From: a virus
Taxonomy: Duplodnaviria > Heunggongvirae > Uroviricota > Caudoviricetes
Length of the DNA: 51,851 bases
Virus record (IMG/VR): IMGVR_UViG_2923307698_000007
Location: 1-51,851 of that record
Direction: 5' to 3' (one strand)
Shown here piece by piece: positions 30,577 to 31,034 of this stretch (position 1 is its first letter; each line of letters begins with the position of its first letter). The notes under the pieces were generated by a model. The model was given only the letters and a program-made list of their open reading frames with translations, did no database searches and had not been told where the DNA came from. The position numbers and the translations under genes are program-made.

Positions 30577-31034
30577 TGGTGATTCTCCAGACGAAGACCC
30601 AGAACACCGGCAATCTCTTCCAGCACCTTGCGCTCTTCCGGCTCAATTTCGCCGTCTGCCTCCGCAATGGCCACCGCCACATCCAGCACATCTTCCGCTT
30701 CACGCGTATCGTGTTTCACATCCTCGATCTCACGTAACGCCGCACGACGACCAATTTTAAAGTTCGTATCCAGCTGACCGATAATGGTTGCGCTCATCGC
30801 ATTAATTTCTGACGTAAACGCGGACAGCGCTGGCTGATTACGCAGTACCTGTTCGATCTTCGCTTTCTCGGAAGCCTCACATTCACCATCTGCACAGGCC
30901 ACCAGGTATGCGGCGTTAATCACCGCCTGTGCCAGATCGCGTTTTTCAAACTTTTTAATTTCCGTTGCCGCTCTGCGGGCTTTTTTTACCAAAAATACCA
31001 AACATCGTGACGTTCCTTTGGGTGGGTGAGCCAA
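30573..31034 (-). CDS. TerB-like (tellurite-resistance TerB domain) protein, possibly frameshifted at N-terminus
   Basis: Acidic helical TerB-like pattern (ACADGECEASEKAKI...AIAEADGEIEPEERKVLEEIAGVLGL); ORF-track start is TTG; an ATG-initiated MFGIFGKK frame (31003-31005) joins only via the A7 tract. Confidence 0.6.
   Translation of the reverse strand: MAHPPKGTSRCLVFLVKKARRAATEIKKFEKRDLAQAVINAAYLVACADGECEASEKAKIEQVLRNQPALSAFTSEINAMSATIIGQLDTNFKIGRRAALREIEDVKHDTREAEDVLDVAVAIAEADGEIEPEERKVLEEIAGVLGLRLENHQ

Follow-up and report, generated by a model that had tools for sequence, protein, structure and literature searches.

A probable pseudogenising A insertion at the 5′ end of tciA, a TerB-domain gene of lambdoid Escherichia coli prophages

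The stretch of DNA analysed here (the window, 51,851 nt) is a lambdoid E. coli prophage in which tciA is a TerB-domain moron gene. On the minus strand the locus is ordered as the Q antiterminator gene (31643–32131), a tRNA gene (31254–31329), the TerB-like gene tciA, a DUF3927 gene (tciB), the sRNA STnc100 and the nanS-p/SASA esterase gene (28244–30094). The slot of tciA and tciB, from the Q antiterminator and tRNA genes to nanS-p, is the position of stx in Shiga-toxin phages. ARAGORN calls the tRNA gene tRNA-Met (CAT), and PGAP names the identical gene elsewhere tRNA-Ile; this naming split is expected for an ileX/ileZ-type tRNA, which has a lysidine-modified CAU anticodon. A degenerate tRNA remnant on the same strand (31179–31252; 19.7 bits with the Rfam tRNA model, below its gathering score of 29, and no ARAGORN call) lies where EDL933-type prophages have tRNA-Arg genes after tRNA-Ile, and the tRNA cluster of this prophage is therefore eroded as well. 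STnc100 (RF02076) is matched over its full length between tciB and nanS-p (30235–30401, minus strand; 101 bits, gathering score 47), a spacer for which PGAP gives only an antisense pseudo "hypothetical protein" fragment in identical genomes. A lambda cIII thermoregulator element (RF01804; 44256–44314, plus strand; 88.5 bits) marks the early-left region as lambdoid and confirms how the prophage is oriented. A promoter and terminator scan around tciA returned nothing above shuffle expectation, and a PADLOC search for defense systems gave no meaningful match.

The 5′ end of tciA holds two reading frames. An ATG at 31003–31005 (minus strand, as are all tciA and tciB features below) follows the Shine-Dalgarno sequence AAAGGAA (31013–31019), conserved in alignments, at a spacing of 7 nt. 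The frame that it opens (ATG TTT GGT ATT TTT GGT AAA AAA AGC CCG CAG AGC GGC AAC GGA AAT TAA) encodes MFGIFGKKSPQSGNGN and ends after 16 codons (30955–31005, stop codon at 30957–30955). The TerB-domain frame lies in +1 relative to this ATG; its maximal open reading frame (30573–31034) encodes 153 aa from a TTG at 31032–31034, which has no Shine-Dalgarno sequence and is passed over by PGAP. The two frames part after codon 8, at a homopolymer of seven A (30981–30987; T7 on the plus strand), and deletion of a single A joins them as MFGIFGKKARRAATEIKK..., a protein of 143 aa. A sequence-only reading of the window had already proposed this arrangement, and its description proved accurate throughout: an ATG backed by a ribosome binding site that opens MFGIFGKK and stops after 16 codons, a long TerB frame offset by one nucleotide with a TTG as its first start, a meeting point at the run of seven T, and a continuous protein, now matched to Pfam TerB and PHROG 632, if one A were missing.

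A second TTG (31001–30999) is nested in ATGTTTGG (ATG-TTT-GG), 4 nt 3′ of the ATG and 11 nt from the Shine-Dalgarno sequence. In genomes identical to the window, PGAP starts the TerB-domain gene at this codon (30573–31001, 429 nt, MVFLVKKARR...; WP_024216035.1, and WP_001303509.1 in EDL933), and it picks the ATG when the tract is A6. The TTG-start product differs from the native one in residues 2–6 alone (MVFLVKK vs. MFGIFGKK). The nested TTG is also present in most in-frame alleles, namely those that encode Phe2 by TTT, and is thus a by-product of the ancestral ATG-TTT-GGN codons that was not selected for. Downstream, tciB (DUF3927, PHROG 1470; 30409–30576, 55 aa, intact) starts with a GTG, and its 4-nt overlap with the tciA stop codon (GTGA) suggests that it is probably translationally coupled to tciA. 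About 85 nt upstream of the tciA ATG there is a poly-G run (31088–31094, G7 on the minus strand). Its length in otherwise near-identical A7-linked copies varies between G5 and G12 (G6 in 24, G7 in 12, and also 5, 8, 10, 11, and 12), while most intact alleles have an interrupted GGGGGTG at this position; the length variation may bear on expression or may be partly an assembly artefact. A proposal that BLAST matches of 600 and 601 nt represented A6 and A7 copies was rejected, as the upstream poly-G accounts for the 599/600/601-nt differences.

The joined 143-aa protein matches Pfam TerB (PF05099) with 56.5 bits (cut-off 24.4) over residues 26–138, the domain beginning at about residue 26, and PHROG 632 ("tellurite resistance") with an E-value of 5.7e-69 over positions 1–142 of 143. 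A search of a collection of 5.8 billion proteins yielded 164 relatives, the N-termini of which follow the pattern MFG[IFLM]F[GK]KK[AT][RK]RA... (Escherichia, Klebsiella, Salmonella, Serratia, Pantoea, Enterobacter, and Erwinia jumbo phages). The join of the two frames is more than chance because the N-terminus that it restores is the one conserved in the family; in the window copy, this N-terminus (MFG.F.KK.RRA) is not read in frame from the ATG. Both ADGE motifs are kept in the window copy, and three conserved positions are changed, as judged against 78 full-length in-frame homologues. Tyr37, beside the first ADGE motif, is Cys (TGT, 30894–30896) where the homologues have Y in 67, F in 9, C in 1, and A in 1; near-invariant Ile70 is Met (ATG, 30795–30797; I in 75 homologues, L in 2); and the C-terminal Leu143 is Gln (CAG, 30576–30578; L in 59, I in 2, F in 2). 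All three changes are derived.

The ancestral state was examined in 150 gene copies at the DNA level, drawn from IMG/VR, GTDB species representatives, annotated phages and E. coli genomes. The gene is in frame in 95 of them (E. coli, Pantoea, Franconibacter, Pseudescherichia, Buttiauxella, and others), many with GGTAAAAAAGC, and apart from the breaks in four further E. coli copies described below (L052, L133, L135, and L137), every relative that does not belong to a single E. coli allele lineage reads in frame from the ATG. Relative to these homologues, the frame is interrupted in the window. Many in-frame copies, including those of Pantoea, Franconibacter, and Pseudescherichia, have an A6 run at the tract (GGT AAA AAA GC[AC]); other E. 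coli alleles have AAA AAG AAA ACC at this position. Each of the 131 phage records with tciA gives a single unbroken alignment that starts at residue 1 or 4. The A7-type allele is absent from sequenced phages; nucleotide identity in the phage collection reaches at most 93.8%, in copies that are intact. The in-frame homologues together with the A6 run in relatives point to the ATG as the true ancestral start, to A6 (two AAA lysine codons) as the ancestral tract and to A7 as a derived insertion of one A. A literature search on the peptide strings MFGIFGKK, MVFLVKK, and MFGIFKKK found nothing.

The names tciA, tciB, and tciC come from phage P1, where these are non-essential accessory genes (PMC10695390). 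P1 TciA belongs to the same family and has the same size, with 41.5–51.7% identity over residues 1–142, and its gene is likewise followed by a tciB homologue (PHROG 1470); in the window, the tciA-tciB pair has an overlapping stop and start, and no tciC, unlike P1, was seen there. The lambdoid phages JLK-2012, Evi, and PPyecE_EH1910 have an intact 432-nt tciA within the same order of Q, tRNA, tciA, tciB, and nanS-p. In contrast to P1 and these lambdoid copies, the extra A after codon 8 parts the ATG from the TerB frame in the window. A function of the family in tellurite resistance, colicin resistance or cell division is a putative one, read from its name only, and this holds for the lambdoid copies too.

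The length of the tract was surveyed in two ways. Synthetic queries of 85–87 nt, differing in tract length alone and with 39–40 nt of flank on each side, had exact matches in 3 (A6), 548 (A7), and 0 (A8) complete E. coli records. Scanning IMG/VR with a variable-gap pattern gave 54 contigs, and adding the window and four loci from E. coli genomes brings the pattern matches to 59; of these, 52 are A7, 5 A6, 1 AAAAAG, and 1 AAAGAAA, and none is A8. The A7 copies include 47 of the 54 IMG/VR contigs (draft isolate genomes). Four independent complete genomes match a region of 601 nt at 100% identity, and a place covering at least 80% of this region is present in 789 genomes. The tract is identical in EDL933 (O157:H7), O55:H7 RM12579, 90-3040, and 14EC001, where the upstream poly-G varies, and it is invariant in a five-sequence alignment. 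A7 is, moreover, linked to lineage-specific SNPs. The allele is widespread in E. coli, especially in STEC lineages, and the stability of its tract excludes both an artefact of assembly and a repeat that is phase-variable. A6 was found in an A7-type background in three complete genomes and in one further copy (L049); the three may reflect rare reversion, recombination or a miscalled homopolymer. One such A6 copy is from a laboratory derivative of strain 86-24, where PGAP calls a 432-nt CDS from the ATG.

The frame-broken lineage has acquired a second lesion and has lost detectable constraint. Codon 46 has changed from GAG to TAG in 32 of 52 copies with A7, and the exact 80-nt TAG haplotype occurs in at least 339 complete-genome records, as against 39 for the exact GAG haplotype of the window, in which Glu46 is intact (30867–30869). 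PGAP flags TAG copies as pseudogenes with an "internal stop" (AMSHJX01 and O55:H7 RM12579). A7 occurs without the TAG in 14EC001, in 90-3040 and in the EDL933 copy (NZ_CP120944, 2422819–2423247). The window copy is thus at an earlier stage, with A7 only, and most genomes are already doubly inactivated. Substitutions in 62 haplotypes were mapped by parsimony on a neighbour-joining tree. The ratio of nonsynonymous to synonymous changes was 17:229 among distant relatives (dN/dS ~0.02), 21:50 on branches with only intact E. coli copies (~0.13), and 15:6 on branches with only frame-broken copies (~0.79), values that assume a tree, an assumption violated by the recombination evident among prophage copies. 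Recombinants in fact join intact 5′ ends to A7-type bodies and the reverse. With that limitation, the frame-broken branches do not depart from neutrality (binomial p = 0.61) and differ from the intact ones (Fisher p = 0.0008; p = 0.018 with each change counted once, so that homoplasy is removed). A test on private polymorphisms, which is underpowered and confounded by recombinants, was not significant (N/S of 4:4 vs. 10:27, p = 0.23). The frame-broken tciA lineage drifts without detectable purifying selection.

Other E. coli prophages have lesions of their own in tciA. One copy has a 7-nt AAAGAAA tract that breaks the frame without a homopolymer (L052), and three have lost a G in ATGTTTG-TATT, which also breaks the frame (L133, L135, and L137). 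Another has a TAA at codon 20 followed by an apparent 1-bp frame-shifting deletion (L044; misaligned body, 228 differences over 408 nt). These further lesions point to repeated, independent inactivation of tciA. Intact 5′ ends have been recombined onto TAG-bearing bodies in two copies (L141 and L143). Two E. coli proteins annotated as "TciA/TerB-like" (P0032 and P0041) begin with MESSKRKPAERLRKLKKFEKRDL; their N-terminus looks frameshifted, with a return to the TerB frame before KFEKRDL, which suggests paired indels at two short 5′ A runs.

We consider A7 likely to be an everyday case of pseudogenisation, a heritable indel in a prophage moron gene that now decays with little or no product. Replication slippage in the ancestor of the allele would have added one A to the A6 run encoding Lys7-Lys8. 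Ribosomes loading at the strong Shine-Dalgarno sequence and ATG would then make a 16-residue peptide and stop, and the TerB frame could be entered only from the weak nested TTG, a few nucleotides farther from the Shine-Dalgarno sequence. If the ATG out-competes this TTG, as its position suggests, TciA output should be low or nil. The mutation is heritable and has reached hundreds of E. coli genomes, both by descent and through recombination between prophages. After the insertion the gene has drifted, gaining a nonsense codon in most copies and, in the window copy, the three substitutions at conserved residues. The locus resembles homopolymer-indel pseudogenes of cryptic prophages and other decaying genes in its single-base insertion into a short A run, its clonal inheritance and the further lesions (a nonsense codon) and neutral-like substitution that followed; it differs in that A7 tciA still has a near-full-length open reading frame through the TTG in ATGTTTGG.

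The sequence-only reading had left a sequencing error, a pseudogenising indel and a slippage-prone tract side by side. The second is the one that the data favor, given the ancestral ATG of the in-frame homologues, the neutral-like substitution and the TAG codon in most copies. The first is contradicted by the 548 exact records, the four genomes identical over 601 nt and the 52 A7 copies among 59 pattern matches, and the third finds no support in a short run that is essentially fixed in length (3:548:0 for A6, A7, and A8) and would need correction in an unfavored direction. Comparison of the tract in homologues, which had been suggested beforehand as a check, gave A6 or AAAAAGAAAA in relatives and an A7 break in none outside the allele lineage. 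Homologues starting at the downstream TTG had been named as evidence that would tell against a frame break; such starts are found only, and trivially, where PGAP has annotated near-identical copies of this allele, whereas the real homologues start at the ATG.

Several observations do, however, sit less well with a pseudogene. The TerB frame of the window is open over all 135 codons past the tract, the TTG product is near-native and treated by PGAP as a normal gene, so that some functional protein may form, and the statistical case is tempered by the private-polymorphism result and by the recombination that violates the tree assumption. In addition, tciB is intact in 50 of 53 A7-linked copies, so that there is no visible decay of the whole cassette; that tciB decays along with tciA was considered and rejected, since A7-linked and intact-linked copies show no difference.

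Alternatively, the A7 allele could be a functional N-terminal variant, in which the TTG at 31001–30999 starts a 142-aa TciA and the frameshift is silent or merely lowers expression. The window copy and about 20 of the 52 sampled A7 copies have an uninterrupted reading frame, both WP_024216035.1 and WP_001303509.1 are normal PGAP CDSs, the TerB domain begins well past the altered residues, at about residue 26, the same Shine-Dalgarno sequence lies 11 nt upstream of the TTG, and tciB stays intact. However, TTG is a weak start codon in E. coli initiation, and here a strong ATG 4 nt upstream shares the Shine-Dalgarno sequence at the better spacing of 7 nt. The TTG is itself an unselected by-product of ancestral codons, and a protein in use would be hard to reconcile with a dN/dS of ~0.8 on frame-broken branches (with the tree assumption noted above), a nonsense codon in most A7 copies and, in the window copy, changes at three conserved residues. 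A functional TTG-started variant is therefore possible but unlikely, and a decaying gene remains the reading that we prefer.

Recoding or switching at the tract, whether by a programmed +1 frameshift on AAA-AAA-A, by transcriptional slippage or by slipped-strand phase variation, would give the A7 run a role and appears highly improbable. Transcriptional slippage in poly(A) tracts rescues reading frames in Thermus dnaX (A9), Shigella mxiE (T9), IS elements (A8–9), and poly(A) genes of endosymbionts, and tciA is similar in that its frameshift lies exactly in an A run where slippage could in principle restore the frame. To regain the TerB frame, either the ribosome must shift by +1 or the mRNA must lack one A or carry two extra. 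Functional transcriptional slippage has been described for runs of 9 and occasionally 8 (PMC1088944), whereas the tciA run is 7, and the relatives have A6 or the interrupted AAAAAGAAAA in place of a run of about 9, or at least 8, kept by selection. Transcript errors of E. coli in A/T runs are insertions, deletions in runs being <1% of deletions (PMC5574713), whereas tciA needs a deletion, or two added nucleotides, from a polymerase that mostly inserts (PMC5574713). On the ribosome, tRNA-Lys that has shifted on an A run re-pairs perfectly, and E. coli shows nonprogrammed suppression of frameshifts at a level of a few percent (PMC10861913). Shifting on A_AAA_AAG-type sequences is, however, −1 (PMC10861913), and the favored shift would thus lead into the third frame here, whereas +1 is required. 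As in prfB-type +1 frameshifting, tciA needs +1 and its P-site tRNA could re-pair perfectly, but it differs from prfB in its A-site codon (AGC, neither a stop nor rare and thus not hungry), in the absence of an SD-like stimulator in TTTGGTATTTTTGGT before the shift site, and in conservation; the fold downstream of the tract is not unusual either (z = −0.32).

The distribution of the tract likewise argues against such a device. The two-frame layout and the slippery site occur only in one near-identical E. coli allele lineage, while diverged homologues are in frame, and the downstream frame is without detectable purifying selection. A phase-variable locus would show frequent length polymorphism among close relatives; the A6:A7:A8 counts are 3:548:0 in complete records and 5:52:0 among pattern matches, and phase variation was rejected on these counts. 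The few A6 copies in an A7-type background (the three complete genomes and L049) and the other 5′ frame breaks in the family could be taken as signs of switching, but the AAAGAAA allele and the allele with the lost G in ATGTTTG-TATT are unable to slip. Programmed frameshifting and transcriptional slippage were rejected as unconserved, without a stimulator, in the wrong direction and on too short a run, and although accidental read-through at a low level may occur, nothing indicates that the gene makes use of it.

Retention of A7 as an expression attenuator is just as improbable as recoding. The 16-codon leader overlaps the TTG and would hold TciA, and TciB coupled to it, at a low level, which initiation at the TTG, or an infrequent +1 slip of tRNA-Lys on AAA-AAA-A, might supply during late-operon transcription. 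If this were true, the allele would represent adaptive down-tuning of a costly moron gene in the stx slot, spread by recombination among STEC prophages. Lastly, an error of sequencing or assembly as the source of the extra A in the window can be set aside almost entirely, for although homopolymers are a classic site of such errors, and the three complete-genome A6 copies could themselves be errors, A7 recurs in 548 complete records obtained on many platforms, in 47 of 54 IMG/VR contigs and in four genomes 100% identical over 601 nt, in linkage with lineage-specific SNPs, so that the error is already refuted at the population level.

As a probable pseudogene, A7 tciA is otherwise a routine case of the ordinary decay of a prophage accessory gene, and its main value is as a caution for annotation. 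Because an in-frame TTG lies within ATGTTTGG, the broken gene still presents a near-full-length open reading frame, and annotation pipelines pass it as intact where no TAG accompanies the insertion; a frame break can thus be masked by a start codon that is nested by chance in the original one. Hundreds of E. coli genomes, O157:H7 EDL933 among them, accordingly have the allele in RefSeq as an intact "tellurite resistance TerB family protein", and STEC pangenome, virulence-gene and "tellurite resistance" inventories that count it as functional will over-count.
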